From the NCBI GenBank assembly GCA_049472355.1, contig JBLIRP010000026.1:1-14610 (forward strand): a stretch of DNA of 14,610 nt, in the 5' to 3' direction. The stretch is from a bacterium. GTDB lineage: Bacteria > SZUA-182 > DTGQ01 > JAFGSM01. The notes beneath the pieces are model-generated. The model was given only the letters and a program-made list of their open reading frames with translations, made no database searches and had not been told where the DNA came from. Positions 414 to 14,610 of the stretch are shown piece by piece (within the stretch, counting starts at the first letter, position 1; each line of letters starts with the position of its first letter). The position numbers and the translations under genes were made by a program.

Positions 414-443
414 TTGACAGGGATTGTGATTATTTGATAGAAT
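414..443 (+). promoter_or_regulatory. sigma70-type promoter of the redox operon
   Basis: TTGACA (414-419), 18-nt spacer, TAGAAT (438-443), with an extended -10 TG at 435-436. It lies about 140 nt upstream of the ATG at 582. Confidence 0.7.
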
Positions 444-498: not shown

Positions 499-581
499 GG
501 ACCCAATGACCGCTCCGATGCCTCTACAATCATATCGGGGAGGCATGGGGGTCCACTGAATCCTTAGTGAAGGAGTGCACC

Positions 582-1106
582 ATGAAGAAGGTCATCTACC
601 TGGATATCGAGAAATGCCTGGGATGCAGAAGCTGTATCTTTGCCTGCGCTGTGGAACACTCCACGTCGAAGAACAGGATCGAGGCAGTATCCGAAACACC
701 CCGGCCCAAGGCGCGGCTCCACATGGTGGTCGCTGAAGGGACCGCCGTACCCCTGCAGTGCCGTCACTGCGAGGATGCGCCGTGCGTCGCCGTGTGCCCG
801 ACCAGGGCGATCGAAAAGCTCGGTCCTCAGGAGCCGGTGATCATCCATGAGAGAAGGTGCATAGGATGCACCTTCTGCATGGTTGTGTGTCCGTTCGGTG
901 TCATATCCCTGTCCAGCGAAGGCAGGGCTGCCGTCAAGTGCGACCGATGCGTGGAGCGCGAGCAACAGGGAAGGCTCCCCGCATGCGTCGAGGCGTGCCC
1001 GACCGGCGCCCTTCAGTTCCTGAGCATCGATGAAATCAACGAGAAGAAACGAGACCGGGCCGCAAGGAAGGAATTGGCTGCCCTGGCAGAGGCGGAGAAG
1101 CTGTAG
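582..1106 (+). CDS. 4x[4Fe-4S] electron-transfer protein, HycB/HydN/CooF (DmsB-fold) family
   Basis: Motifs CLGCRSCIFAC, CRHCEDAPCVAVCP, CIGCTFCMVVCPFG and KCDRC...PACVEACPTGAL, plus a basic C-terminal helix (KKRDRAAR). RBS AAGGAG at 570-575 favours ATG 582 over GTG 567. Confidence 0.9.
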   Translation: MKKVIYLDIEKCLGCRSCIFACAVEHSTSKNRIEAVSETPRPKARLHMVVAEGTAVPLQCRHCEDAPCVAVCPTRAIEKLGPQEPVIIHERRCIGCTFCMVVCPFGVISLSSEGRAAVKCDRCVEREQQGRLPACVEACPTGALQFLSIDEINEKKRDRAARKELAALAEAEKL

Positions 1107-1114
1107 TTCTTTCG

Positions 1115-1152
1115 GGAAGGCCCTCCAGCCGCGGATCGCATCAGGGTCTTCC
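1115..1152 (+). other. intergenic stem-loop without U-tract
   Basis: GGAAGGCCCT (1115-1124) pairs with AGGGTCTTCC (1143-1152), 10 bp including one G-U. Confidence 0.4.
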
Positions 1153-1188
1153 ACCGCCGTGCACATTCTCCGTATTGGGGGGAATATT

Positions 1189-1446
1189 GTGATCGAGGTA
1201 ACCGTATGCGTCGGCAGTTCGTGCCATATTAAGGGTTCCAGGAAATTTATCGAACAGCTCAACAAGCTGATTGCCGAGTATAAGCTGGAGGATATGGTAT
1301 CGCTCAAGGGCTCCTTTTGCCTCGAACACTGCGGCGAAGGTTTCAACTGGAAGATCGGTGATACCTTATATAGCTGCAAGGACATTCACGAGGCGGAACG
1401 AATCTTCCGTGAAAAGGTTATAACCCCCTTGACAGGAAAGGAATAA
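1189..1446 (+). CDS. small thioredoxin-like [2Fe-2S] ferredoxin (NuoE C-terminal-like, HfsA-like)
   Basis: VCVGSSCHIKGS...GSFCLEHC (CX4C...CX3C). GTG start at 1189 after a G-rich RBS at 1177-1183. The stop overlaps the next ATG (TAATG). Confidence 0.85.
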   Translation: MIEVTVCVGSSCHIKGSRKFIEQLNKLIAEYKLEDMVSLKGSFCLEHCGEGFNWKIGDTLYSCKDIHEAERIFREKVITPLTGKE

Positions 1447-3116
1447 TGCCCCTTATAACGACCACCCCTTCCCATTGCAGGGATTGCTACAAATGCCTGC
1501 GATCCTGCCCGCTCAAGGCAATAAGGATCTGCAAGGGGGCGGTGCAAATCGAGGAAAGCCGCTGCATCTTCGACGGGCGGTGTATCACCTTTTGCCCCCA
1601 GGGCGCCATCCAGGCGGTCGGGGAGGTGAACAGGGTAAAAAAATACATCCGTGCAAAGGGACGGGTTATCGCAAGCCTGTCTCCCACCACAGCCCTGGCC
1701 TTCGGGGGGAACCCCGAAGGGATCACGGACGCGTTCATGAAACTGGGATTTGCAGGGGTGGAATATATGGCGGACGCCGGTGCCGCCATGGTCAGGGAAT
1801 ACGAGCGGGTACTACCCGGTCTTGCTCGGCCGGTCATCTCCTCTCACTGCCCCGCCGTCTGCGAACTGATGGAGAAATACTTCCCCGAGGCATTGAATCA
1901 TCTTGCACCTGTAGCCGACCCTGCAGTATGTCACGCACGCATCATCAAGTCACGGGAAGAGGGGCCCTGCCGAGTGATCTACGTCGGTCCGTGCCTTGCC
2001 CAACGGCTCCGGGAGGGAGAGGACCTTGACGCAGTGCTGACACTGCTCGAGGTGGAAAACTGGTTTGTGGAGGAGGGGATTGAGATTTCGCCCCTATCCA
2101 TCGAAAACCGCAAAAAGCAGCGTCTGGGTTCTGCTGGGGCGCTTGCGGTTTCCGGGGGGTTGCTCTCATCGCTCAATCTCAAGGAGTCGATTGCCGGGGG
2201 CAGGAGCATCTCCCTTTCAGGGTTGGAGGATTGTATCAAATTCCTGAAAAATCTTCCTTCCGAGGAATCCGGTCTTGAATTTGCGGATCTCATGGCATGC
2301 CCCGGCGGATGTATCAACGGCCCCTTTCTGCGGACAAAGCAGGACACCGTAAGCAGGCGATTCGCCCTTGCCACGGGCGTCGTCCATGCGCCGGAGTCAC
2401 TTGTCGTAGCGGCGGACCTTACACGGAAGCCGCGGCCCAGGCCGTTCGTGCCCCCGAAAACGAGCCAGGAGGAGGTCAACTACGTGCTGCGCCACCACAC
2501 CAGTCACCTCGATTGCGGCATCTGCGGCTACGACAGTTGTCTCCAGAAGGCGAAGGCCGTGTGCGAGGGGATGGCGGATGTGGAGATCTGCGTGCCCATG
2601 ATACGAACACAGGGGCAGGAGACCCTTTCCATCCTGGAATACACCCCGAATGGGGTGGTGCTCGTGGATACGGGCACCAGGATACGTTTTGCAAACCCCT
2701 CGTTTTACCGCATGTTCAAGTGTGAAGGGGAAAACGTGCTCGGGAGGCCGGTCGCCGATTTCATCCATACCGATTGCTTCGAAGAGGCCATCAAGAGCGC
2801 CAAGAGCACCAATTTCAAGAGAAGCATCCCGGAATTGGGGGTGAGTTTTCGGGCGTGCATCTTTCCGATCACGGGAGAGGCGCTCTTTTGCGGTATCCTG
2901 AATGATATCTCCGAGGAGGAGGAGGCCCGGCAGGAATTCGTGAAGGTGAAGGACGAAACCCTTCAAAGGGCCCAGGAGGTCATCGGCCGCCAGATGAAAA
3001 CAGCCCAGGAGATAGCGGGACTGCTCGGTGAGACCACTGCGGAAACCAAGGTGCTGCTCGTCAAGCTCATGAATCTTTTTGAGGAGAAGGAAACACCGGG
3101 TGATGTTCTTCTATGA
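1446..3116 (+). CDS. sensory [FeFe]-hydrogenase-like protein (group C, HydS/HfsB-like): 2x[4Fe-4S], H-cluster-fold domain, FeS domain, PAS
   Basis: N-terminal CRDCYKCLRSCP and CIFDGRCITFCP; L1-like ISSHCP, L2-like GPCLAQ, L3-like DLMACPGGCING; CGICGYDSC...C FeS motif; PAS (TPNGVVLVD...FANPSF); family-typical tail QMKTAQEIAGLLGETTAETKVLL. Confidence 0.88.
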   Translation: MPLITTTPSHCRDCYKCLRSCPLKAIRICKGAVQIEESRCIFDGRCITFCPQGAIQAVGEVNRVKKYIRAKGRVIASLSPTTALAFGGNPEGITDAFMKLGFAGVEYMADAGAAMVREYERVLPGLARPVISSHCPAVCELMEKYFPEALNHLAPVADPAVCHARIIKSREEGPCRVIYVGPCLAQRLREGEDLDAVLTLLEVENWFVEEGIEISPLSIENRKKQRLGSAGALAVSGGLLSSLNLKESIAGGRSISLSGLEDCIKFLKNLPSEESGLEFADLMACPGGCINGPFLRTKQDTVSRRFALATGVVHAPESLVVAADLTRKPRPRPFVPPKTSQEEVNYVLRHHTSHLDCGICGYDSCLQKAKAVCEGMADVEICVPMIRTQGQETLSILEYTPNGVVLVDTGTRIRFANPSFYRMFKCEGENVLGRPVADFIHTDCFEEAIKSAKSTNFKRSIPELGVSFRACIFPITGEALFCGILNDISEEEEARQEFVKVKDETLQRAQEVIGRQMKTAQEIAGLLGETTAETKVLLVKLMNLFEEKETPGDVLL

Positions 3117-4245
3117 ATTCGCAGCGGGGCAGATCTCCAAGTCACACGAGGAGCTGTGCGGAGACAGCGTGGCATTCTCCTCTCACCACAACGATGTCAC
3201 CATGGTGCTCTCGGATGGATTGGGAAGCGGTGTCAAGGCGAATATCCTGGCGACGCTTACCACCCGCATGCTCACCTGCATGCTGGACAATGGACTGCCC
3301 CTCAGGGAGGTGGTAAAAACCGTCACCGAGACCCTGCCGGTGTGCAAGGTACGGCGGCTGGCGTACAGCACCTTTTCCGTAGCCCAGCTTTTTTCGGACG
3401 GCGAGGGCCGTTTGGTGGAATTCGACAGCCCGTCGGCCTTTGTTTTCAGGGGCAACAACCTTCAGGATCTCAACTGGGAACTCATTTCCATCTCCCAGAA
3501 GAATATACGGGCATGCAATCTGAAATTGCACACCGGAGACTGGCTCGTATTCGTCTCCGACGGGGTTATCAGCGCCGGGATCGGTGGGCTCTATCCCCTC
3601 GGGTGGGGCTGGGACCAGGTGGCGCACTACCTGGCGAATCATCTCGCTGAGCCGGTATCCGCCCAGGAGGTCGTGAACGCCACCCTGGAAACGGTGAGCA
3701 GCCTGTATGCGGGCCCACCCGGTGACGATGTGACCGTGGCCATCATCAAGGTGCGCCACAAGCGGTTCCTGACCATTTTGTTCGGCCCGCCCCTTAATCA
3801 ACAGGAAGATCCGATAGTCGTTGAAGACCTCATGAACGCCGAGGGACGGCGGGTGGTGTGCGGCGGCACAACGGCGAACATCGTGGCCCGGCACCTGGGC
3901 AAGGAACTCTCGGTGGATCTGGGCACCATGACCGAGGATGTTCCTCCCCTGGGACATATCGACGGCATCGACCTGGTGACCGAAGGGGTGCTGACGATGA
4001 CCCGCCTGGTGACGATGCTCCAGAAGGGGCTCACCGCAAGTTCCCGAAGGTTCCAGGTGGACAGCTCAAGCGCCTTGCTGAGGCTGCTGGAGGAGGCGGA
4101 CAGCATCAGGCTCCTGGTTGGACAGGCAAAGAACCCTGCACATCAGGACCCGAACCTTCCCGTGGAGATCAAGACCGAATTGGCACGAGAGCTCCAGGAT
4201 TACCTCATCAAGCGGAACAAGGAGTGTTCGATAGAATACTTTTGA
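3103..4245 (+). CDS. SpoIIE/PP2C-family Ser/Thr protein phosphatase (HfsC-like)
   Basis: EELCGD, LSDGLGSGVKANIL, VSDGV and GDDVTV metal-binding motifs, plus a C-terminal VVCGGTTANIVAR...LVTEGVLT domain typical of hydrogenase-linked phosphatases. Overlaps the upstream gene; the start could be GTG 3100. Confidence 0.88.
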   Translation: MFFYEFAAGQISKSHEELCGDSVAFSSHHNDVTMVLSDGLGSGVKANILATLTTRMLTCMLDNGLPLREVVKTVTETLPVCKVRRLAYSTFSVAQLFSDGEGRLVEFDSPSAFVFRGNNLQDLNWELISISQKNIRACNLKLHTGDWLVFVSDGVISAGIGGLYPLGWGWDQVAHYLANHLAEPVSAQEVVNATLETVSSLYAGPPGDDVTVAIIKVRHKRFLTILFGPPLNQQEDPIVVEDLMNAEGRRVVCGGTTANIVARHLGKELSVDLGTMTEDVPPLGHIDGIDLVTEGVLTMTRLVTMLQKGLTASSRRFQVDSSSALLRLLEEADSIRLLVGQAKNPAHQDPNLPVEIKTELARELQDYLIKRNKECSIEYF

Positions 4246-4260
4246 TAAAAGGGGATGTGC

Positions 4261-4821
4261 ATGAAAAAGGATAACGGTACCACCAAAAAACGCCCGACCA
4301 AAACAAGTACGGCCGGCACCACGGAGGGCCCTTCACAGCTTGTAGATCGCCTTCTGGATCGCTACAACCGGAAAAGGGGGATGCTGATACCCATCATGCA
4401 GGACATACAGGAGGAATGCCAGTACCTTCCCGTGGATGTCCTCAAGGAGCTCTCCCTGCGCATGGAGGTCCCCCTCAGCCAGATATTTTCCGTGGCCACC
4501 TTCTACGCCATGTTCCGCCTGGCGCCTCCCGGGGAGCACCAGATCACCCTGTGCATGGGAACGGTGTGCTTTCTGAAGGGTGCGGGCAAGGTGGCCGAGG
4601 CCATACAGCGTGAATTTTCCGTAGAGGCGGGGGGCACCAGCCCGGACCGGAAGTTCACCTTTAAGCCGGTAAACTGCGTGGGTGCATGTGCCCTGGCCCC
4701 GGTCATGATCGTCGACGGGACCTATTACGATGCGGTCACCCCTGAGTCGGCCATCGACATTCTCCATGACGTGGCCGGAGGAAAAAAATCCGCGCACGAC
4801 GCTTCGTCCGAGGGGGAATAA
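4261..4821 (+). CDS. nuoE: NuoE/HydC-like [2Fe-2S] subunit
   Basis: LIPIMQDIQE, VATFY, CMGTVC...NCVGACALAP. RBS AGGGGA at 4250-4255 favours ATG 4261. The symbol denotes homology, not membership of complex I. Confidence 0.9.
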   Translation: MKKDNGTTKKRPTKTSTAGTTEGPSQLVDRLLDRYNRKRGMLIPIMQDIQEECQYLPVDVLKELSLRMEVPLSQIFSVATFYAMFRLAPPGEHQITLCMGTVCFLKGAGKVAEAIQREFSVEAGGTSPDRKFTFKPVNCVGACALAPVMIVDGTYYDAVTPESAIDILHDVAGGKKSAHDASSEGE

Positions 4822-4836
4822 CCAGATGGTTCAGGA

Positions 4837-4859
4837 TGCCCCTCCTGTTGTGAGGGGCA
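4837..4859 (+). other. intergenic stem-loop without U-tract
   Basis: TGCCCCTC / GAGGGGCA perfect 8-bp stem with a 7-nt loop, between the nuoE-like and nuoF-like genes. Confidence 0.45.
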
Positions 4860-4884
4860 CCGGGATTCTAACAGAAAAGAGGGA

Positions 4885-6759
4885 ATGGCATTGAGTACTG
4901 CAACAGCACGGTTACAGAGCGTTCAGGCACTGAAGGAATACGGAAAATCGCTCAAAAGGGGCAAAACCGGGAAGGAAAAGGTGGTGCGGGTGTGCATCGG
5001 CACCGGCTGCCAGGCAAAGGGATCCATGGAGGTACTGAAGGCATTCCAGGACGCGCTCAAGGAGATGGGCACCTCCAGGGTCAGGATCGAGACCAAGCGA
5101 ACGGGGTGCCACGGCCTCTGCGAGCTCGGTCCGATAGTGGTCGTTGATCCTGGCGAGATCATCTATCTCCGGGTGCAGCCCTCCGACGTGCCGGAGATCT
5201 TCAGGGAAACCGTCATGCTGGGGCATGTGGTGGAGCGTCTGCTCTACGAAACGACAGCCGAGGGAGCGAGGGCGAAGACCCCCATGGAGATCCCCTTCTA
5301 CAATCTCCAGAGGCGCATCGTGCTCGCCCTCAACGGGGTGATCGACCCCACCAGCATCGATGACTACATCCTCCAGGAGGGTTATGAGGGGATGGCCACG
5401 GCGCTCACCACCATGCAGCCCGATGAGATCATTGATTGGGTGGAGCGTTCCGGCCTCAGGGGCAGGGGGGGAGGAGGGTTTCCCACCGGCCGGAAGTGGC
5501 GCACCTGCCGCCGGACCGGACGCGAGCCCCGCTACGTGATCTGCAACGGGGATGAAGGGGACCCCGGCGCCTTCATGGACCGCTCCATCATGGAGGGCAA
5601 CCCCCACGCGGTGATCGAGGGGATGATCATCGGTGCCTATGCGGTCGGCGCCCATGAGGGATTCATCTACGTGCGCCACGAGTATCCCCTGGCAGTCAAG
5701 CACCTCACCATGGCAATCGCCCAGGCAAAGGAGATGGGCCTCCTCGGCGAGGACATCCTGGGTACCGGATTCAACTTCGACATCACCATAAACCGGGGAG
5801 GAGGCGCATTCATCTGCGGTGAGTCAACGGCACTCATGGCCTCTCTGGAGGGGAGAATCGGAGAGCCAAGGGCCAAGTACGTGCACACCGTGGAATACGG
5901 TCTCAACGACTGCCCCACGGTGTTGAACAATGTGGAGACCTGGGCGACCGTGCCCGCCGTCATCCGCAACGGCCCGGATTGGCTTTCCTCCATAGGCACC
6001 GACCGGAGCAAGGGCACCAAGGTGTTCAGCCTGGTGGGCAAGGTGAACAACACGGGGCTGGTGGAGGTGCCCATGGGGATGACCCTGCGGGAGATCATCT
6101 TCGGCATCGGCGGCGGGGTGCAAGGCGGCCGCCCCTTCAAGGCGGTCCAGACCGGCGGTCCGTCGGGGGGCTGTCTTCCCGAGTCGCTCATAGATCTCCC
6201 GGTGGATTTCGATCGCCTCACCGAGGTGGGTTCCATGATGGGCTCCGGCGGTATGATCGTCATGGACGATACCACCTGCATGGTCAACGTGGCCAAGTAC
6301 TTCCTGAATTTCCTCAGGCAGGAGTCCTGCGGGAAGTGCACCCCCTGCCGCGAGGGCATCGCCCAGATGCTCCACATCCTGCAGCGCATTACCAAGGGGC
6401 AAGGGGAGTCGGGAGACATCGAAATGCTGGAGGGACTGGCCGAGCTTCTGGCTGATTCTGCGCTCTGCGCCCTGGGAAAGACCGCAGCGAACCCGGTGCT
6501 CTCCACCCTGAGGTACTTCCGCAACGAGTATGAGGAGCACATCCGCGAAAGGCACTGCCCGGCCCTGGAGTGTCCGGGGTTATTCCGTTTCGAGATCCAG
6601 GAGGACCTCTGCAAGGGGTGCGGCATATGCCTCAAGAAATGCCCCATGGACGCCATCAGCGGGGAGAAGAAGAAGCCCCACGCCATCGACCAGGAGAAAT
6701 GCACCCAGTGCGGTGTATGTTTTGCAAAGTGTCCCTTTTCTGCAGTCATAAAGATATAA
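4885..6759 (+). CDS. nuoF: NuoF/HydB-like FMN, NAD(P)H-binding subunit, long form with N-terminal [2Fe-2S] and C-terminal 2x[4Fe-4S]
   Basis: CIGTGC...[59 protein letters not shown]...[26 protein letters not shown] and [12 protein letters not shown]. Confidence 0.93.
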
Positions 6760-6773
6760 CCTTGGAGAGGAGT

Positions 6774-7568
6774 ATGCCGACAATTACCATTGATGACAAG
6801 ACGTATAACGCCGATACCGGAGAGACGATCCTCGAGGTCGCCATACGGGAGGGGATCTGGATTCCAACCCTCTGCTACCATCCCTCGCTCACCGGTTACG
6901 CATCCTGCCGACTCTGCCTGGTGGAACTCGACCGCGGCGATTGGCGGCAGATCGTCACCTCATGCAACTATCCCATTCGTTCGGATATACGCGTGTGGGT
7001 GAATTCGGAGCGCGCCATGCAGGCGCGCAAGGGGGTCATGGAGCTCCTGCTCGCCCGCTGCCCGGAGAGCGAGTACATCAAAGAGCTCGCCGAGCGCATG
7101 GGGGTGCAGGGTACACCCTATCCCAAGGTAACGGAGGCCCAGAGGAATTGCATGCTGTGCGGTCTGTGCACCAGGGTGTGCGCCGAGGTGATCGGCCAGT
7201 CGGCCATCAGTTTTTCCGGTCGCGGTGTGGAGCGTGTGGTATCAACGCCCTTCCAGCTTGCCTCGGATGCCTGCATCGCCTGCGGCGCCTGTGCCGCGGT
7301 CTGCCCGGTGGGAACCATACAGATCCGAATGCACGAAAACGAGATCGAGATCTCACCTTTCAAGTCCCGGGTGCCCGTTCCTCGCTGCATGGAATGCGGG
7401 GAGCCCCTGGTCAGTGCAAAGGTGGGTGAAAGGGTGCTTGAACTGCTTGCGCAAAAATTCCCCGAAGAGAACAAGGAACCCCTCCGGGATGCAGTCATGC
7501 TCTGTCCGGTATGCCGGCGTAAAAAGGTCGCCGGGGGATTGAGCTTTGCCTGCAGGGAGTTGAAATAG
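6774..7568 (+). CDS. NuoG/HydA N-terminal-like FeS subunit (HytD-like): [2Fe-2S] + 2x[4Fe-4S] + C-terminal CxxC...CxxC domain, no catalytic domain
   Basis: IPTLCYH...CRLCLVE...TSC; CMLCGLCTRVC; CIACGACAAVCP; CMEC...CPVC. RBS GGAGAGGAG just before ATG 6774. Confidence 0.87.
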   Translation: MPTITIDDKTYNADTGETILEVAIREGIWIPTLCYHPSLTGYASCRLCLVELDRGDWRQIVTSCNYPIRSDIRVWVNSERAMQARKGVMELLLARCPESEYIKELAERMGVQGTPYPKVTEAQRNCMLCGLCTRVCAEVIGQSAISFSGRGVERVVSTPFQLASDACIACGACAAVCPVGTIQIRMHENEIEISPFKSRVPVPRCMECGEPLVSAKVGERVLELLAQKFPEENKEPLRDAVMLCPVCRRKKVAGGLSFACRELK

Positions 7569-7590
7569 CCGTCTGAAACAAACAGGGATG

Positions 7591-10032
7591 CTATGAAGAG
7601 ACCTCCGCGACGATGGGGGAAAGCTGTTCCTCAACGTAGCGGATAAAATCCTTTATAAGGGATTCGAGTTGCCGGAGGTGCCTTTCCGCATCCTCGAATT
7701 TCTTGTCCACGCCCATCTTTTCCAGCTTCAGCGCCAATTTCGTTATCTCCCATACTCGAAAGTTCGACAGGGTCCCCCCCAGGCTATGGGCGGCGCGCTG
7801 GAGACCCTCCGGGTCCCTGGCGATGATGGATGTTCGTATCCGTTCCACCTGATTCGGATAGGTTTCCACGAAGATCATGAAGATCTCCTTGAACAGTTCC
7901 GTATCCCCCTCGAAATCACCGGTGATGGTCCGGATATCAAACTCCATTTCCTTCGTCCCGATGACGGCGGATACCCTTTCGCGCGACAGTACCTGGTCAA
8001 CCTTGAGGAGAAGCTCATCCATGTTGATCGGTTTTGCCAGGTAATCATCCATCCCCGCGGCCAGGCACTTCTCCTGGTCACCCTTCATGGCATGCGCCGT
8101 CATGGCGATGATGGGCAGGTGTTCGCCTGATCGCTTCTCCATTTCCCTGATATATCGTGTTGTCTCCAATCCGTCCATAACCGGCATCTGGACATCCATG
8201 AATGCCAAGTCGAAGCCGAGTTCCCTGAGGATTTCGAGGGCCTCCTGTCCGTTTTTTACGATGTGCACAAGATGCCCCTGCTTTTCAAGGAGCGTCTGTA
8301 TGAACTTCTGATTTACCGGATTATCCTCGGCAAGAAGGATGCGCAAACCTTCCCCCGTGCCGTCGGTGCGATCATCCTTCATGCAATCGGTTTTTACCGG
8401 CTCACCCTGTGCCGGTTTCTTCTCCAGTACGGTCAAAATCGTATCAAGAAGCTCGTAAGGTTTTATCGGTTTGACAAGATTGGTGAAAACCCCGAGATCC
8501 TGGCAGGGCCCCTTCTTTTCCCTCCGGACGTACGAAGAGAGCAGAATGATCCTGGTGTCCCTCACCAGCCGGTTCCTCTTTATACGCTGGCATATCTTGG
8601 ATACGTCCGTGCCGGGAATCAGCGTATCGAGCAGCATGACATGATAGGGTCCCCGGTTTTTGGCGGCGCCTTCCAGCGCAGCCAGGGCACTCTGACCATC
8701 ATGGGCCTCACCGTACCCGAGCCCCCAGGGAGAGACAATATCACCAATAATTTTCCGGCAGGTGTCGTTATCATCGACAATCAACAGGCGTATGCCCTGA
8801 AGCGTGATCGTCTCGGCCCTCCTGGCTGCCTTTCTCTGCGTAGAGGGGAGAAGGAATCTGATCGAAAAATAAAACGTGCTCCCCTTCCCTACCCGGCTTT
8901 CCACCCATATCGTGCCCCCCATGATTTCCACGAGACGCTTTGAAATGGTGAGACCTAATCCGGTGCCGCCGAATCGCCTGGTGAAAGAACCATCGCCCTG
9001 CCGGAAACCTTCAAAGATTGCCTCCATCTTTTCCGGAGGGATACCAATGCCGTTATCCGATACGGAGAAATGGAGCGTCGCCGATTCCGTATCCTTTGCC
9101 TCAACCTTACAATGAATGAGCACCTCGCCCTTGTCCGTGAATTTAAAGGCATTGGAGCCCAGATTGATGACGACCTGGCGCAATTTTCCCGGGTCACCCA
9201 CCAGAAAATCAGGGACCTCGGGATCGATGGAGTAGAGGAGCTCCAGCCCCTTTTCATGGGCCTTGACGGCCAATATGTCCACCGCGGCCTCGATGGTCTG
9301 GGGAAGGTTGAAGTCAACGTTCTCCATCTCCAGATGCCCTGCCTCAATCTTGGAGAAATCGAGGATCTCGTTGATGATATTCAAAAGGGAATCCGCCGAA
9401 TCCCTAACGATTTCGAGATAATCACGCTGTTCATCGGTAAGCGGGGTGTCCAGGGCAAGGCGGGTCATCCCGATGATTCCGTTCATCGGTGTGCGGATCT
9501 CATGCGACATATTGGCCAAAAACTCACTCTTGGCGTTATTCGCCGCTTCCGCCTCCTGCTTAGCCGTGAACAGCTCCTGCGCCCGCTTTTCAAGCTCTGT
9601 GTATGCACGGTGCAGTTCGGCATCCCTCTTTTCTATCTGGTTCAACATCTCGTTAAGATTCCCCACCAGGAATCCCAACTCGCCGCTTGTATCACCCGGC
9701 ACCCGGATGGAATAATCACGCCCCTCGGAAACCGCCTTCGTGATATGCGCCAATTCCACGAGCGGCCTTGAAATCATTCGCTGCATAAAGGTCCCTACAG
9801 GGAGGGCCAGCATAGTAACAAGGAGCAACAAAACGCCAACCAGCGGTACGTAAAAAAGCATGGATGTATGAATGGCACCCTGGAAGGTAATCAGATCATG
9901 GATGACCATACAGGCAAGCACAGAGATCAGCAATATGCTGCTCGTAAGGATGATAAGCAAAACGATCTTTTTTCGTATCGACAAGGTTCTCACAGACGGC
10001 ATTCTCTCTCTTTGTTCCATGGACCGTTTCAC
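7591..10032 (-). CDS. hybrid sensor histidine kinase (2 TM-HAMP-HisKA-HATPase-REC-REC-Hpt)
   Basis: [16 protein letters not shown]-box; [16 protein letters not shown] and GGTGLGL; two receiver domains (VDDN...LLD...KP; AEDN...MDVQMP...KP); Hpt AAHSLGG. The start may be ATG 10020 or 10002. Confidence 0.93.
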
Positions 10033-10458
10033 TCAAGGAGCACATTGACAACGGAGGACATGTCTCTCCTCTTCATTTGAGAAAAACAATTCTCTATAAT
10101 AAATCGTCCTTTTTGACCATTTTTATCAACCTTACAGGCATGACACCCCTCACTTCTTCATATTATTTTGAGTCAACAGCAAAGAAGGCGCCGGTCGCAG
10201 AGGGCTGAAGTCGCTCTTCCCCTCAGTCCGCATTCCACAATTTTCAGGATAGTGAGCATATCGTGTAATTCCTGTGTGTTGTCACCTTCCGGGTATTATC
10301 CGATATCTGTAATGAAATGAATCATCGCGGGGCATATGAATATCTCATCAGATCTCCCCCTGGATGCCTTCCTGTTTAAGATCGTATCTTAATTGATCAT
10401 TTATCAGTGATTGCAATCCGGTGGTAAAAAAATTTGTGAGAAGTTGTATCCCTCCCCT

Positions 10459-10487
10459 TTGTACAATGTATTTTTTTGGGGTATAAT
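10459..10487 (+). promoter_or_regulatory. distal sigma70-type promoter upstream of mucR-like gene
   Basis: TTGTAC (10459-10464), 17 nt, TATAAT (10482-10487). Confidence 0.45.
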
Positions 10488-10620
10488 GCACTATTAAAGA
10501 TGCTGGATTTCCACTTATTTTTTTCTTTTGGATTTACCGTATCTCATTCTCTCTGAATGAAATTTGTAACTTGCTATTATCATCCGGCGGCTGTTTTTAT
10601 TTTTTTTATACTTCAGGCTG

Positions 10621-10648
10621 TTGACAAATTGATTAATATGCTTATCAT
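10621..10648 (+). promoter_or_regulatory. proximal sigma70-type promoter upstream of mucR-like gene
   Basis: TTGACA (10621-10626), 16 nt, TATCAT (10643-10648), in AT-rich DNA. Confidence 0.5.
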
Positions 10649-10782
10649 AGTAATATACTCATGCCTCAATACAACGAGGAGAATAATCACGAGAGATAAT
10701 CGTTGCCTTTTTTAATGGGCATATAGCCCATGTCAACTAAATTCTACTCAAACACCTAACCCTTTCCATGGAGGACAAAAAC

Positions 10783-11229
10783 ATGGCAAAGACACTATTG
10801 GAAATGGCTGCTGAAATCGTTACAGCCCAGGCGTCAAACACACAGATGTCTTCAGAAGAGGTAAGTGACGCACTCAAAAGATTATTTGTCACTCTCAAGG
10901 ATATCCGGGATAAAGAGGAGGGCAGCTATCCCGCCCTTGAACCGGGATCCACGGAAAAGGGGCAGTTACCCCTTGCGCCTAAAGACTCCATACAGAGAAA
11001 TAAGATTGTGTGCCTTGAGTGCGGCAAGGAATTCAAACAGCTCTCCAAGTCGCATCTGAGATCCCATGATCTCACCCCCAAGGAATACAAGAAGAAACAT
11101 GGGCTGCGAACCGGTCAGGCACTGGTGGCAAAATCCTTGACAGCGAAAAGGAGGAAGCTGGCAAAGGAGAAGAAACTGGGCAACAAGCTCGCTGAATACA
11201 GGAAAAAGAAGGCAGCGGGCAAGGCCTGA
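10783..11229 (+). CDS. mucR: Ros/MucR family zinc-finger transcriptional regulator
   Basis: LLEMAAEIVTAQAS N-terminal helix; SIQRNKIVCLECGKEFKQLSKSHLRSHDLTPKEYKKKHGL...LVA. RBS GGAGG at 10770-10774 favours ATG 10783. Confidence 0.88.
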   Translation: MAKTLLEMAAEIVTAQASNTQMSSEEVSDALKRLFVTLKDIRDKEEGSYPALEPGSTEKGQLPLAPKDSIQRNKIVCLECGKEFKQLSKSHLRSHDLTPKEYKKKHGLRTGQALVAKSLTAKRRKLAKEKKLGNKLAEYRKKKAAGKA

Positions 11230-11264
11230 GATGATTCTTTAGGGATTCCGATGCCATTCCGCAT

Positions 11265-11927
11265 ATGAGAATCATTGCCTTCGGAGACATCCACGAGCAT
11301 ACCGATCACCTCTCTGCAATAGAGGATCTTCCCCGTGCGGACTGTGTTGTCATCACAGGGGATTTAACCAATACCGGCGGTATCGAAAGGGCAAAGATGG
11401 TTATCGATCACGTGCGACGATACAATACCGCCGTCTTTGCCCAGGCAGGCAATTTCGACAGGAGAGAGGTGGAATCCTTTCTTCAGGGACTCGGAATCAG
11501 TATCCACGGAAACGGTATTATTCAAGGAACAATTGGAATATTCGGGGTGGGGGGATCGAACCCCACCCCCTTCAACACCCCGAACGAGTTCGCGGAACAT
11601 GAGATACATTCCCTTATCCTTCAAGGATACCGCACAGTGAAGGATGCCCCCTGCACGCTCTTTGTCCCCCACGCACCTCCCTACGACACGGCGGTCGACA
11701 TGGTGAGAAGCGGAGAGCACGTCGGCAGCACGGCGGTAAGGGAATTTATCGAACTGTATCAACCCGATGTCTGTGTCACCGGACATATCCACGAAGGAAA
11801 GGGGGAGGACAGAATAGGGAGGACCCATGTAGTGAATCCCGGGCCGTTGGCTCAGGGGGGATACGTTGAATTAATCGAGGGGAAGACAGGCGTTGAGGCA
11901 CGATTAAGACAGGTCCGGGGGAAGTGA
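11265..11927 (+). CDS. calcineurin-like metallophosphoesterase
   Basis: GDIH, ITGDL, AGNFD, HAPP and TGHIHE motifs; C-terminal VVNPG. Confidence 0.9.
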   Translation: MRIIAFGDIHEHTDHLSAIEDLPRADCVVITGDLTNTGGIERAKMVIDHVRRYNTAVFAQAGNFDRREVESFLQGLGISIHGNGIIQGTIGIFGVGGSNPTPFNTPNEFAEHEIHSLILQGYRTVKDAPCTLFVPHAPPYDTAVDMVRSGEHVGSTAVREFIELYQPDVCVTGHIHEGKGEDRIGRTHVVNPGPLAQGGYVELIEGKTGVEARLRQVRGK

Positions 11928-12005
11928 GGAAGGCTGGCGAATGTTTTCATGTAACCTGTTGACGGTATGTCTTATTTCAGATTTACGTGTGGGAAAGGAT
12001 GGCTG

Positions 12006-12275
12006 ATGAGTATATCAATTCAAAAACCGAACAGGGAAGAGGTCGAAAAAAGAGGAATCTGCGACTGGCCGATCTGGGAAAAGGGCGTTTCACGCTTCGA
12101 CTGGTATTATGATTCCACCGAGGAGTGCTATATCCTGGAAGGATCGGTTGAGGTGACAACCAAGGATGGTGAGACGGTGCATTTCGGCGAGGGTGATTTC
12201 GTGACCTTTCCCCAGGGTTTATCATGTACATGGAATATAAAAAAACCGGTCAGGAAACATTATAATTTCAGATAA
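12006..12275 (+). CDS. small cupin (DUF861/Cupin_3-like)
   Basis: WPIWEK...FDWYYDSTEECYILEGSVEV...GDFVTFPQGLSCTWNI...KHY. RBS AAGGA about 7 nt before ATG 12006. Confidence 0.85.
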   Translation: MSISIQKPNREEVEKRGICDWPIWEKGVSRFDWYYDSTEECYILEGSVEVTTKDGETVHFGEGDFVTFPQGLSCTWNIKKPVRKHYNFR

Positions 12276-13524: not shown

Positions 13525-14610
13525 CTATCCGACTACCCTCATCCATTCCTCCATGGTGGTAATCCCCTGTTTGACCTTTGCAAGCGCATTTTCCCGAAGG
13601 ACCTTGAGCCCCAGTTCCTCAGCCTTCACCTGTATTGTGAGGGGGGATTCCCTTTGGATGATCATCTCGCGGATCTCGTTCCACATGGGGAGCACCTCGT
13701 AGATGGCAAACCTTCCCCGGTAGCCGGTGTCATAACATTTCGGGCAACCCTTCCCTGCGTAAAATGTATCCCGGGATAACTTCTGACCCATCCATTTGAG
13801 GTAGTCCAGGTACATGTCCGGGGGCTTTGTCTCCTGCCTGCAAGCAGGGCAGATCTTTCGCATCAGCCTCTGGGCGATGATCAAATCGACCGAGGTGGCC
13901 ACCAGGAAGGGCTCTATCCCCATCTCCACCAGCCTGGTGATGGTCTCCACCGCACTGTTGGTGTGCAGGGTGCTCAGCACCAGATGCCCGGTAAGGGCGG
14001 CCTTCACCGCTATCTGCGCGGTCTCCAGGTCCCGCATCTCCCCCACCATGATCACATCGGGGTCCTGCCTCAGGAACGATCGCAGGGCACGGGCAAAATC
14101 CAGGCCGATGGCGGGATTCATCTGAAACTGGTTGATGCCGTGTATGTTGTACTCCACAGGGTCCTCCGCCGTATTGATGTTCCGGGTCCCGTCGTTCAGC
14201 TTCTGGAGCATCGAATACAGGGTGGTGCTCTTCCCGCTCCCCGTCGGGCCGGTGACCAGGATCATCCCCTTCGATTTATACATGGCCCCCATGAGGACCT
14301 TCATATCCTCGCCCTTCATCCCCAGCTTGCTGATGTCCATCTGCAGATTCGATTTGTCCAGCAGGCGCAGCACCACCTTCTCACCAAAACCTCCAGGAAA
14401 GACGGATACCCGGAAATCGATGCACTTCCCCTCCACCTTGATCCTGAACCGCCCGTCCTGCGGAAGCCGCCTTTCGGAGATGTCCAGCCGCGACATCACC
14501 TTTATCCGGGAGGTGATCCCGTTGCGGTATTTGAAGGGCGGCCTCATGGCCTGGATGAGCGAGCCGTCCACCCTGAACCGCACCCGCACCTCGTCCTCGT
14601 ACGGCTCGAT
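13525..14610 (-). CDS. pilB: type IV pilus assembly / T2SS ATPase (PilB/GspE), 5'-truncated by the window edge
   Basis: The frame stays open to 14610 (IEPYEDEVRVRFRVDG). ERRLPQDGR, Walker A GPTGSGKST, Asp box TAEDPVE, Walker B IMVGEMRD, His box LSTLHTN, Zn motif CPAC...CPKC. PilB versus GspE is not certain. Confidence 0.9.
   Translation of the reverse strand: MEPYEDEVRVRFRVDGSLIQAMRPPFKYRNGITSRIKVMSRLDISERRLPQDGRFRIKVEGKCIDFRVSVFPGGFGEKVVLRLLDKSNLQMDISKLGMKGEDMKVLMGAMYKSKGMILVTGPTGSGKSTTLYSMLQKLNDGTRNINTAEDPVEYNIHGINQFQMNPAIGLDFARALRSFLRQDPDVIMVGEMRDLETAQIAVKAALTGHLVLSTLHTNSAVETITRLVEMGIEPFLVATSVDLIIAQRLMRKICPACRQETKPPDMYLDYLKWMGQKLSRDTFYAGKGCPKCYDTGYRGRFAIYEVLPMWNEIREMIIQRESPLTIQVKAEELGLKVLRENALAKVKQGITTMEEWMRVVG

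Follow-up and report, generated by a model that had tools for sequence, protein, structure and literature searches.

An Operon Encoding a Type-2 BfuABC Core, a Polyferredoxin Adaptor and a Probably Degenerate Hydrogenase-fold Sensor, with Carbon Monoxide Dehydrogenase as a Candidate Partner

The DNA analysed here, referred to as the window, is the entire 14,610-base contig C68 of the metagenome-assembled genome (MAG) G000 (3.49 Mb, 148 contigs, 87.5% complete). Seven + strand genes, packed within positions 582-7568 according to Pfam domains and sequence, appear to encode a Type-2 BfuABC bifurcating core, a CooF/WorS-like polyferredoxin adaptor and a regulatory trio. On balance, we favor a module that would dock through its adaptor on a carbon monoxide dehydrogenase (CODH) encoded elsewhere. 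The best reading of the window cassette is a detached Codh-Bfu-type module with a degenerate hydrogenase-fold sensor.

Results

Composition of the Operon and Its Bifurcating Core

Gene calls in the window were made by Pfam domain search and sequence inspection. The genes stand in the order HycB-like adaptor, HfsA-like, HydS-like, PP2C, BfuC, BfuB and BfuA, with intergenic spacings of 83, −1, −38, 9, 63 and 14 nucleotides (nt; negative values denote overlaps). An earlier sequence-only reading of this DNA had described a seven-gene set without a catalytic enzyme, and this was borne out by Pfam and sequence. No HydA, formate dehydrogenase (FDH), CODH or hydEFG was found by Pfam in the 14,610 bases.

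The last three genes were compared with solved structures. BfuC (188 amino acids (aa); 4255-4821, + strand), a NuoE/HydC-like [2Fe-2S] subunit (Pfam PF01257, 4e-46), matched HydC (8a6t_C, 3.5e-37) and WorC (9mqx_C, 2.1e-32) in the PDB. BfuB (624 aa; 4885-6759, + strand) is a NuoF/HydB-like FMN/NAD(H) subunit with N-terminal [2Fe-2S] and two C-terminal [4Fe-4S] sites by Pfam. Its best PDB match was WorB (9mqx_B, 812 bits, residues 31-621), compared with 770 bits for NiFe-HydB and 751-754 bits for FeFe-HydB. The short BfuA (264 aa; 6774-7568, + strand) is of the WorA/HytD-like type and carries Fer2_4 and two [4Fe-4S] sites by Pfam; it aligned end to end with its best PDB match, WorA of the Acetomicrobium mobile WorABCSL complex (9mqx_A, 247 aa, E = 7.4e-35). 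In the alignment of BfuA relatives, the cysteine sets for A1 [2Fe-2S] and for the [4Fe-4S] clusters A2 and A4 were invariant, LLLARxPES replaced the His-ligated A3 motif (HxxxCxxC), and a C-terminal Cys4 site, CxxC...CPxC, was invariant as well. In line with the missing A3, Pfam gave no PF10588 match in BfuA.

The adaptor (174 aa; 582-1106, + strand) is a CooF/HycB/WorS-like polyferredoxin (Pfam Fer4_11, E = 3.7e-21) with 16 invariant cysteines in its alignment, sufficient for four [4Fe-4S] clusters. Its PDB matches were HycB3 (3.1e-28) and HycB4 (6e-25) of the hydrogen-dependent CO2 reductase (HDCR) and, over the full length, WorS (9mqx_E, 1.7e-24).

The Type 2 class of Bfu enzymes is defined by a BfuA without A3 and A5, with added subunits that deliver electrons to A4 (PMC9304861). 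The window proteins show the core traits of this type, namely a BfuB with FMN/NAD(H), N-terminal [2Fe-2S] and two C-terminal [4Fe-4S] sites, a NuoE-like BfuC, and a BfuA with A1, A2 and A4 and without A3 and A5. As to subunits for a third substrate, the window offers the polyferredoxin adaptor only. WorA is described as lacking A3 and as having a Cys4 zinc site in the position at which A5 is bound by other BfuA proteins; its C-terminal helix recruits the polyferredoxin WorS, and electrons pass along S4-A4-A2-A1 to the BC core, where bifurcation takes place (PMC12318220). The last three genes of the operon thus very probably encode a Type-2 BfuABC bifurcating core and not a broken hydrogenase.

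An origin of the short BfuA by truncation of HydA was rejected. The orthologues are short as well, and 3398 proteins of 145-462 aa, among 4137 candidates, belonged to the BfuA family at E ≤ 1e-15. The 120 best longer relatives were fusions to HdrA-like, FrhB-like or polyferredoxin bodies; the H-domain PF02906 was found in none of these 120, and none exceeded 55% identity.

G000 encodes six NuoF-family genes in total. It also encodes two fusions of about 400 aa that join a receiver domain to a short BfuA-like part, 44-45% identical to the window BfuA (G000:C85:19-1230, − strand, in L046; and G000:C61, L049:7244-8449, + strand). The C85 gene is preceded by a NuoF-like gene and a fusion of Fer4_11 with NuoE, and many of the 20 phylum genomes have similar frames of about 400 aa. 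Phospho-regulation would be an unusual trait for a Bfu subunit.

Conservation of the Enzyme-less Operon

Orthologues were searched in one genome per species and in the 20 genomes of the phylum, which is small. BfuA orthologues with open frames of 270-324 aa were found in G009 (97% identity), G008 (75%) and G012 (77%), and the same seven-gene order with a short BfuA (264-270 aa) was present in 4 of the 20 phylum genomes, G000 included. Loci L012 and L011 carry the full set of seven genes in this arrangement. Two independent MAG contigs, 37 kb and 357 kb long, show the arrangement. The operon of G012, a genome from a different family of the same taxonomic order, is flanked by different genes on both sides. 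Recent deletion and misassembly were both considered as origins of the missing catalytic gene. They are excluded because the operon is kept in G012, in another family, amid different neighbours: a deletion is ruled out by an order conserved across two families with different neighbours, and a misassembly by the two independent contigs. The recurrence of the order without hydA, which the sequence-only reading had named as a check, was found, and close relatives with hydA in the operon, which would have spoken against that reading, were not; the relatives at 75-97% identity keep the short terminal gene.

Relatives of the Cassette in CODH/ACS Operons

Metagenome contigs were scanned with the BfuA alignment, and 80 loci (50-76% BfuA identity) were kept of 585 confirmed relatives. 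Loci were annotated by tblastn with the seven window proteins and the G000 proteins for CODH and acetyl-CoA synthase (ACS), and by Pfam on flanking genes. CODH lay ≤700 nt 3' of BfuA in 30 of the 80 loci and ACS in 32 (62/80 together), and in 12 loci CODH was directly 5' of HycB. Where enough flanking DNA was present, CODH/ACS-cluster genes were found in 41 of 47 loci. Two layouts were seen, CooC-HycB...BfuA-CODH-ACS-AcsC-RACo-CooC-AcsD-AcsE and CooC-CODH-HycB...BfuA-ACS-.... On this sequence evidence, the cassette family is widespread and CODH/ACS operons are its normal setting. Since the family is mostly embedded in such operons, the likely partner is narrowed to CODH. A CODH gene in or beside the bfu cluster, the mark of Codh-Bfu, is adjacent in the metagenome relatives and missing from the window.

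In each of the 28 sensor-bearing loci that extend to HycB, the order is HycB - HfsA-like - PAS protein - PP2C - BfuC - BfuB - BfuA. The H-domain was found in none of the 30 loci reaching HycB: 28 have a PAS-only sensor, and 2 lack both PAS and PP2C. The PAS protein of these cassettes aligned only to residues ~380-550 of the window HydS-like protein, and the PAS half was 54-58% identical between the window and the CODH-linked cassettes. The window HycB was 41-60% identical to CODH-adjacent HycB proteins, versus 34% to the Fe-S subunit linked to the tungsten/molybdenum aldehyde oxidoreductase (AOR) of G000. In a BfuB tree of 43 rows, all cassettes were united (support 100 in this quick search). 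In one metagenome locus (L104:882-2779) a full cassette lies off CODH/ACS, about 2 kb downstream of genes for a [NiFe]-hydrogenase large subunit and a HycI protease.

The four operon-holding genomes differ in the position of CODH. In G012 the cassette faces, in convergent orientation, a cluster (aminotransferase - formyltetrahydrofolate synthetase - cyclic nucleotide regulator - selenocysteine FDH - NuoF - NuoE - ACS - CODH - AcsC - AcsD - AcsE - CooC), and CODH is ~11 kb from BfuA. G008 has a CODH and the HydS-like gene together on one contig of 20.7 kb. The single CODH of G000 is on C138, in the series CdhD - NuoF-like - 1172-aa Nfn/Stn-like - CODH - ACS (L047:3525-19992), where the NuoF-like protein has 594 aa and the 1172-aa gene is Fer2_4/GltD/molybdopterin-like. 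Farther along C138 come genes for a 1040-aa NuoF-GltD fusion and for a selenocysteine FDH.

A Hydrogenase-fold Sensor without Maturases

The HydS-like protein (556 aa; 1446-3116, + strand) has two [4Fe-4S] sites, an Fe_hyd_lg_C match (E = 3.5e-33), a PF04060 Fe-S domain and a PAS domain. With its F-cluster domain, H-domain, Cx2Cx4Cx16C motif, PAS and conserved C-terminal helix it conforms to the M2f architecture that Land et al. (PMC8163306) described for group C sensory hydrogenases, and it shares with group C3 both this architecture and the adjacent PP2C gene. Its start overlaps the stop of the HfsA-like gene (TAATG), and it has 38 nt in common with the PP2C gene.

The H-domain motifs read SSHCP, GPCLAQRLRE and MACPGGC, so that the proton-path Cys299 position (SSHCP) is not conserved. 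An alignment was made of the window protein and 20 homologues picked out of 70 found, and the four H-cluster cysteines were invariant across all 21. Ordinary group-C HydS proteins carry a pocket lysine in the motif GPC[LI]AKKxE (of the MPCxxKxxE family), which we take to be Lys358 in CpI numbering. Lys358 is required for an active H-cluster and binds a cyanide ligand of its [2Fe] subcluster. The lysine was kept in 11 of 11 ordinary group-C proteins; in the remaining rows the column held Gln (6 proteins, the window and five close orthologues), Glu (3) or Met (1). The pocket lysine typical of group C3 is consequently missing from the window protein (GPCLAQRLRE).

The H-domain was the least conserved domain among close orthologues, with 49-81% identity; PAS reached 68-95% and the C-terminal helix 82-98%. 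Cys14 of the F-cluster was gone in three of seven close orthologues. Against the 97% relative L012, the ratio of nonsynonymous to synonymous substitution rates (dN/dS) was 0.147 in the H-domain, compared with 0.034 in PAS plus C terminus; the comparison with L011 was discarded, the synonymous sites being saturated and the ungapped pairing invalid. By these measures, constraint on the H-domain is relaxed yet still present. The PAS region of the window clade (2571-3116, residues 376-556) has conserved Cys426, Cys444 and Cys482, plus Cys471. The first three are common to the PAS-only proteins of CODH-linked cassettes and absent from ordinary HydS. The C-terminal LLGETTAETKV helix was invariant, in the CODH-linked cassettes as well as in Firmicute HydS.

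Hydrogenase machinery was searched in the genome and the phylum. The single PF02906 match in G000 is the HydS-like gene itself, and matches in 6 of the 20 phylum genomes were only of the HydS-like type (554-584 aa) or of a histidine kinase-fused type of 678-684 aa. A co-located catalytic group A [FeFe] hydrogenase, expected for group C3, was accordingly not found among the PF02906 matches of the phylum. HydG exceeded its curated cut-off in none of the 20 phylum genomes, and HydE and HydF in 0 of the 4 operon holders (completeness: G000, 87.5%; G008, 63%; G009, 97%; G012, 98%), so that G000, G008, G009 and G012 all lack the HydE, HydF and HydG set that goes with group C3. Of the 14 control genomes, two passed the cut-off in the same maturase searches, those of Thermotoga maritima and Bacteroides thetaiotaomicron. 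HytA with FdhA, or HfsD, as in the Hyt and hfsABCD systems, was found in neither the window nor the genome searches. A cognate hytA/hydA with maturases elsewhere would have turned the operon into an ordinary Hyt-like one according to the sequence-only reading; none was found in the four operon-holding genomes.

Because the pocket lysine is lost, the H-domain is relaxed and the maturases are missing, the HydS-like protein is probably a degenerate, H-cluster-free form with Fe-S clusters only. The earlier proposal of a repurposed hydrogenase-fold sensor gains support from the loss of the Lys358 equivalent and from the missing maturases.

The 678-684-aa type is a second hydrogenase-like sensor, composed of F-domain, partial H-domain, PF04060, HisKA and HATPase_c. 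It was found at G009:C37 (L034:1240-3276), G010:C58 and G011:C24, in genomes that lack HydEFG; G000 gave no such match.

The HfsA-like and PP2C Proteins

The HfsA-like protein (85 aa, GTG start; 1189-1446, + strand) is a small thioredoxin-like [2Fe-2S] protein with a weak Pfam PF01257 match. The residues C7, C12, C44 and C48 of its Cx4C...Cx3C motif were invariant in the alignment, and it was 47-55% identical to a 90-aa gene product at the matching position in CODH-linked cassettes.

The phosphatase (3079-4245, + strand) is a SpoIIE/RsbU-type PP2C (Pfam SpoIIE, 2.6e-16), and its AlphaFold2 model (mean predicted local distance difference test (pLDDT) 80.6) matched 5ucg_A with Z 23.6 over residues 7-228. 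It ends in a conserved alpha/beta domain of about 155 aa (residues 229-388; 3763-4245) with invariant VCGGTT, VPPL, DLxTEG and NPAHQxPxLP; for the phosphatase alignment, the mean column identity was 77% over the window and the CODH-linked cassettes. VIA-align with the whole model gave molybdopterin-oxidoreductase-type domains (NuoG 7awt_G, Z 10.4; FhcB, 9.5; FDHs, 6.9-8.8). The C-terminal domain modelled alone (pLDDT 89.4) gave nothing in Foldseek at E ≤ 0.001, only generic flavodoxin-like matches, and an ESM Atlas search with this domain returned unnamed proteins of ~150 aa. The possible NuoG/FDH-type likeness in the model is taken as a lead only. Complex prediction for the HydS-like PAS half with PP2C returned no answer (score 0.03, mark 0.32), which counts neither for nor against an interaction.

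Transcription

A promoter-like site, TTGACA-18 nt-TAGAAT with a TG extension, lies at 414-443 (+ strand; 11/12 consensus matches). It is the only strong sigma-70-like site 5' of the first gene, within the sole intergenic stretch upstream; overall, the scan found 3 sites versus 3.0 expected from shuffles, i.e. no excess. Contigs of two metatranscriptome libraries matched at 95-100% identity over 21 and 19 of 30 bins, all in 557-7238. They bridge the HydS/PP2C, BfuC/BfuB and BfuB/BfuA junctions and start 3' of the promoter-like site, with no cover in 300-556; the DNA run covers the operon flanks too. Where RNA contigs are lacking (300-556, 7239-8000 and gaps within the operon), this should not be read as a sign that transcripts end there. 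These contigs give a weak hint that the operon is transcribed as a unit.

Discussion

Proposed Function

By analogy with solved relatives, the FMN of BfuB would bind NAD(H), and its C-terminal clusters would serve ferredoxin. The short BfuA would exchange the third electron pair at A4 through the four-cluster adaptor, giving a predicted path CODH - adaptor - BfuA A4 - A2 - A1 - BfuB/BfuC. CO oxidation would then be linked to the concurrent reduction of both NAD+ and ferredoxin, by analogy with Wor-Bfu (PMC9304861). In reverse, NADH and reduced ferredoxin may jointly drive CO2 reduction at CODH while ACS keeps CO low.

The HfsA-like protein, the HydS-like/PAS protein and PP2C would form a conserved regulatory unit. 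Sister cassettes retain only the PAS half, which points to this half and PP2C as the conserved signalling unit. With a Cys-rich PAS and Fe-S clusters present, the sensor input is probably redox. The HydS-like protein may signal the redox state via the Cys-rich PAS and the C-terminal helix to PP2C, whose output would be the dephosphorylation of a target.

Weighing of the Interpretations

Several observations weigh against the interpretation favored here. G000 is only 87.5% complete. The cassette is not linked to CODH in G000 or G009, and the CODH/ACS operon on C138 already has NuoF-like and 1172-aa Nfn/Stn-like genes directly before CODH. Alternative partners exist in the genome, an AOR with its own Fe-S subunit on C95 and the selenocysteine FDH on C138. 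The Prismane (CODH/Hcp) family is present in 20 of the 20 phylum genomes and AOR in 12, with the cassette in only 4; with such frequencies, co-occurrence is uninformative for the partner. Six of the 47 informative metagenome loci have no CODH/ACS neighbours. The BfuB tree is an unresolved four-way split (window lineage, two CODH-linked clades and the PAS-less pair) in which the window lineage is not nested in the CODH-linked clades. The H-domain is under purifying selection (dN/dS 0.147) with its four cysteines kept; it must therefore do something, and an unusual cofactor is possible. Contigs from the RNA libraries may contain DNA, and both RNA runs share a study with the best DNA holder. For this organism in particular, we regard the case for CODH as the partner as evenly balanced.

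The module might instead serve another enzyme encoded elsewhere: the AOR on C95, which would be a Wor-Bfu split over two loci, the selenocysteine FDH, or an enzyme from the 12.5% of the genome that is not assembled. WorL, an AOR-family protein, is encoded with WorABCS in Wor-Bfu, and no AFOR domain was found in the window. WorA and WorB are nevertheless the best solved relatives of BfuA and BfuB, the single AOR of G000 has an adjacent WorS-like Fe-S gene, and AOR is present in all four operon holders. WorS units form a nanowire chain in 9MQX (PMC12318220), so that an extra adaptor could lengthen the chain. Opposed to this, 8 of the 12 AOR-bearing phylum genomes are without the cassette, tblastn with the G000 AOR found no AOR gene in the 80 metagenome loci, and the window HycB is just 34% identical to the AOR-linked Fe-S subunit. 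The FDH genes in G012 and on C138 come with their own NuoE/NuoF partners. We consider service to another enzyme unlikely.

Somewhat less probable still is a system with no catalytic partner, in which BfuABC and the adaptor would connect the pools of NADH and ferredoxin with the HydS-like protein's Fe-S clusters, as a sensor of redox poise with PP2C as the sole output. The enzyme-less operon is complete in four genomes, four more metagenome loci (L094, L103, L104 and L106) have a full cassette off CODH/ACS, and the H-domain is under purifying selection. The F-cluster domain at the N terminus, which is the electron entry in true hydrogenases, would suit such a role, but its Cys14 is missing in three of seven close orthologues, and 28 of the 30 related cassettes reaching HycB lack both H- and F-domain with the Bfu core intact. 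A bifurcating enzyme of ~130 kDa would also be an expensive sensor. The HydS-like protein could also be a working H2 sensor or a slow hydrogenase (a HytA-like third subunit of a Type-2 FeFe-Bfu), with maturases that are unassembled or non-canonical. The four H-cluster cysteines, the M2f architecture and the PP2C neighbour are retained, the adaptor scores best against HycB3 and HycB4 of the hydrogenase-bearing HDCR, and TmHydS and TamHydS are reported to be active without the usual proton path (PMC8163306). This possibility is improbable, as HydE, HydF and HydG are missing in all four holders, two of them 97-98% complete, and HydG in all 20 phylum genomes. The Lys358 equivalent, moreover, is lost only in the window clade and its nearest neighbours, and the H-domain evolves ~4 times faster than the PAS half.

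Relation to Known Systems

For a bifurcating core docked on an enzyme by way of a HycB-like subunit, a solved precedent exists in WorABCSL (Acetomicrobium mobile, PDB 9MQX, PMC12318220). The window module and WorABCSL have in common a short BfuA that lacks A3 and ends in a Cys4 site and a tail, a BfuB with its full set of accessory clusters, BfuC, and a small four-cluster polyferredoxin that bridges core and catalytic subunit in the solved complex. Unlike WorABCSL, the window operon is without a gene for WorL (AOR) and has three regulatory genes between adaptor and BfuC, and relatives of its cassette neighbour CODH/ACS and not AOR. This precedent and the absence of HydA, HytA and HydEFG agree with the stand-alone docking module of the sequence-only reading; docking and regulation remain inferred.

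Codh-Bfu, with a BfuABC of short BfuA plus CODH and Fe-S subunits and with CO as the proposed third substrate, is another close published type. It was predicted from 4 Firmicutes sequences (BfuB clade 49) in which the CODH genes lie between bfuB and bfuA (PMC9304861). The relatives of the window cassette differ by standing in CODH/ACS (Wood-Ljungdahl) operons with PAS and PP2C regulators, and the window copy by being detached from CODH. This prediction is the only counterpart that we found in the literature, and the supplementary tables of its source may list more such clusters (PMC9304861). The claim of an undescribed system must accordingly be narrowed: the kind, Type-2 Bfu, is already published, whereas the variant differs from the published cases.

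A small [2Fe-2S] protein - HydS - PP2C series 5' of bfuC-bfuB-bfuA is also known from group C3 phosphatase-linked HydS (TmHydS, HfsA-HfsB-HfsC and BfuT; PMC8163306, PMC11406978), BfuT being the name of the sensor in BfuTABC and BfuABCT clusters (PMC11406978). In contrast to these, the window BfuA lacks an H-domain, HydEFG are missing from the genomes, the Lys358 equivalent is Gln, and the PAS has the clade-specific cysteines common to CODH-linked PAS-only proteins. HytA-E/FdhA of Clostridium autoethanogenum (FdhFeFe-Bfu; PMC9304861) is similar by description, with a short BfuA (HytD), a HycB-like HytE and the NuoE/NuoF-like HytC and HytB, whereas HytA and FdhA are missing from the window operon and its surroundings.

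Implications

The low-potential electron supply and balance for Wood-Ljungdahl CO2 reduction are still debated, and the entry of NADH is unsettled too. If the favored reading is true, a regulated BfuABC in the CODH/ACS operons of many uncultured lineages would directly couple CO/CO2 to both NAD(H) and ferredoxin. The window lineage would further be a natural experiment on sensory hydrogenases, with a HydS-like protein without maturases, an altered pocket, and PAS-only sister cassettes. The unit of PAS half and PP2C offers a starting point for finding what is controlled by group C3 systems. More speculatively, a hydrogenase fold without H-cluster might be wired by its F-clusters into the bifurcating CODH-linked chain and gauge the Wood-Ljungdahl electron supply (redox poise or CO), switching enzyme or genes via a PP2C whose C-terminal domain would dock it on the NuoG-type complex; we regard this idea as unlikely.

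Other Features of the Window

A convergent hybrid histidine kinase gene (7591-10032, − strand) lies 22 nt beyond the last operon stop, where the sequence-only reading had placed a convergent kinase. It encodes HAMP, two receiver matches and Hpt. The kinase beside the operon is kept in L012, not in L011. The GC content drops to 41-46% around 9500-11500. The downstream part of the window holds genes for a Ros/MucR regulator (10768-11229), a metallophosphoesterase (11265-11927) and an EutQ-like cupin (11967-12275), and a T2SSE/PilB-like ATPase is encoded near its end (13525-14589, − strand).

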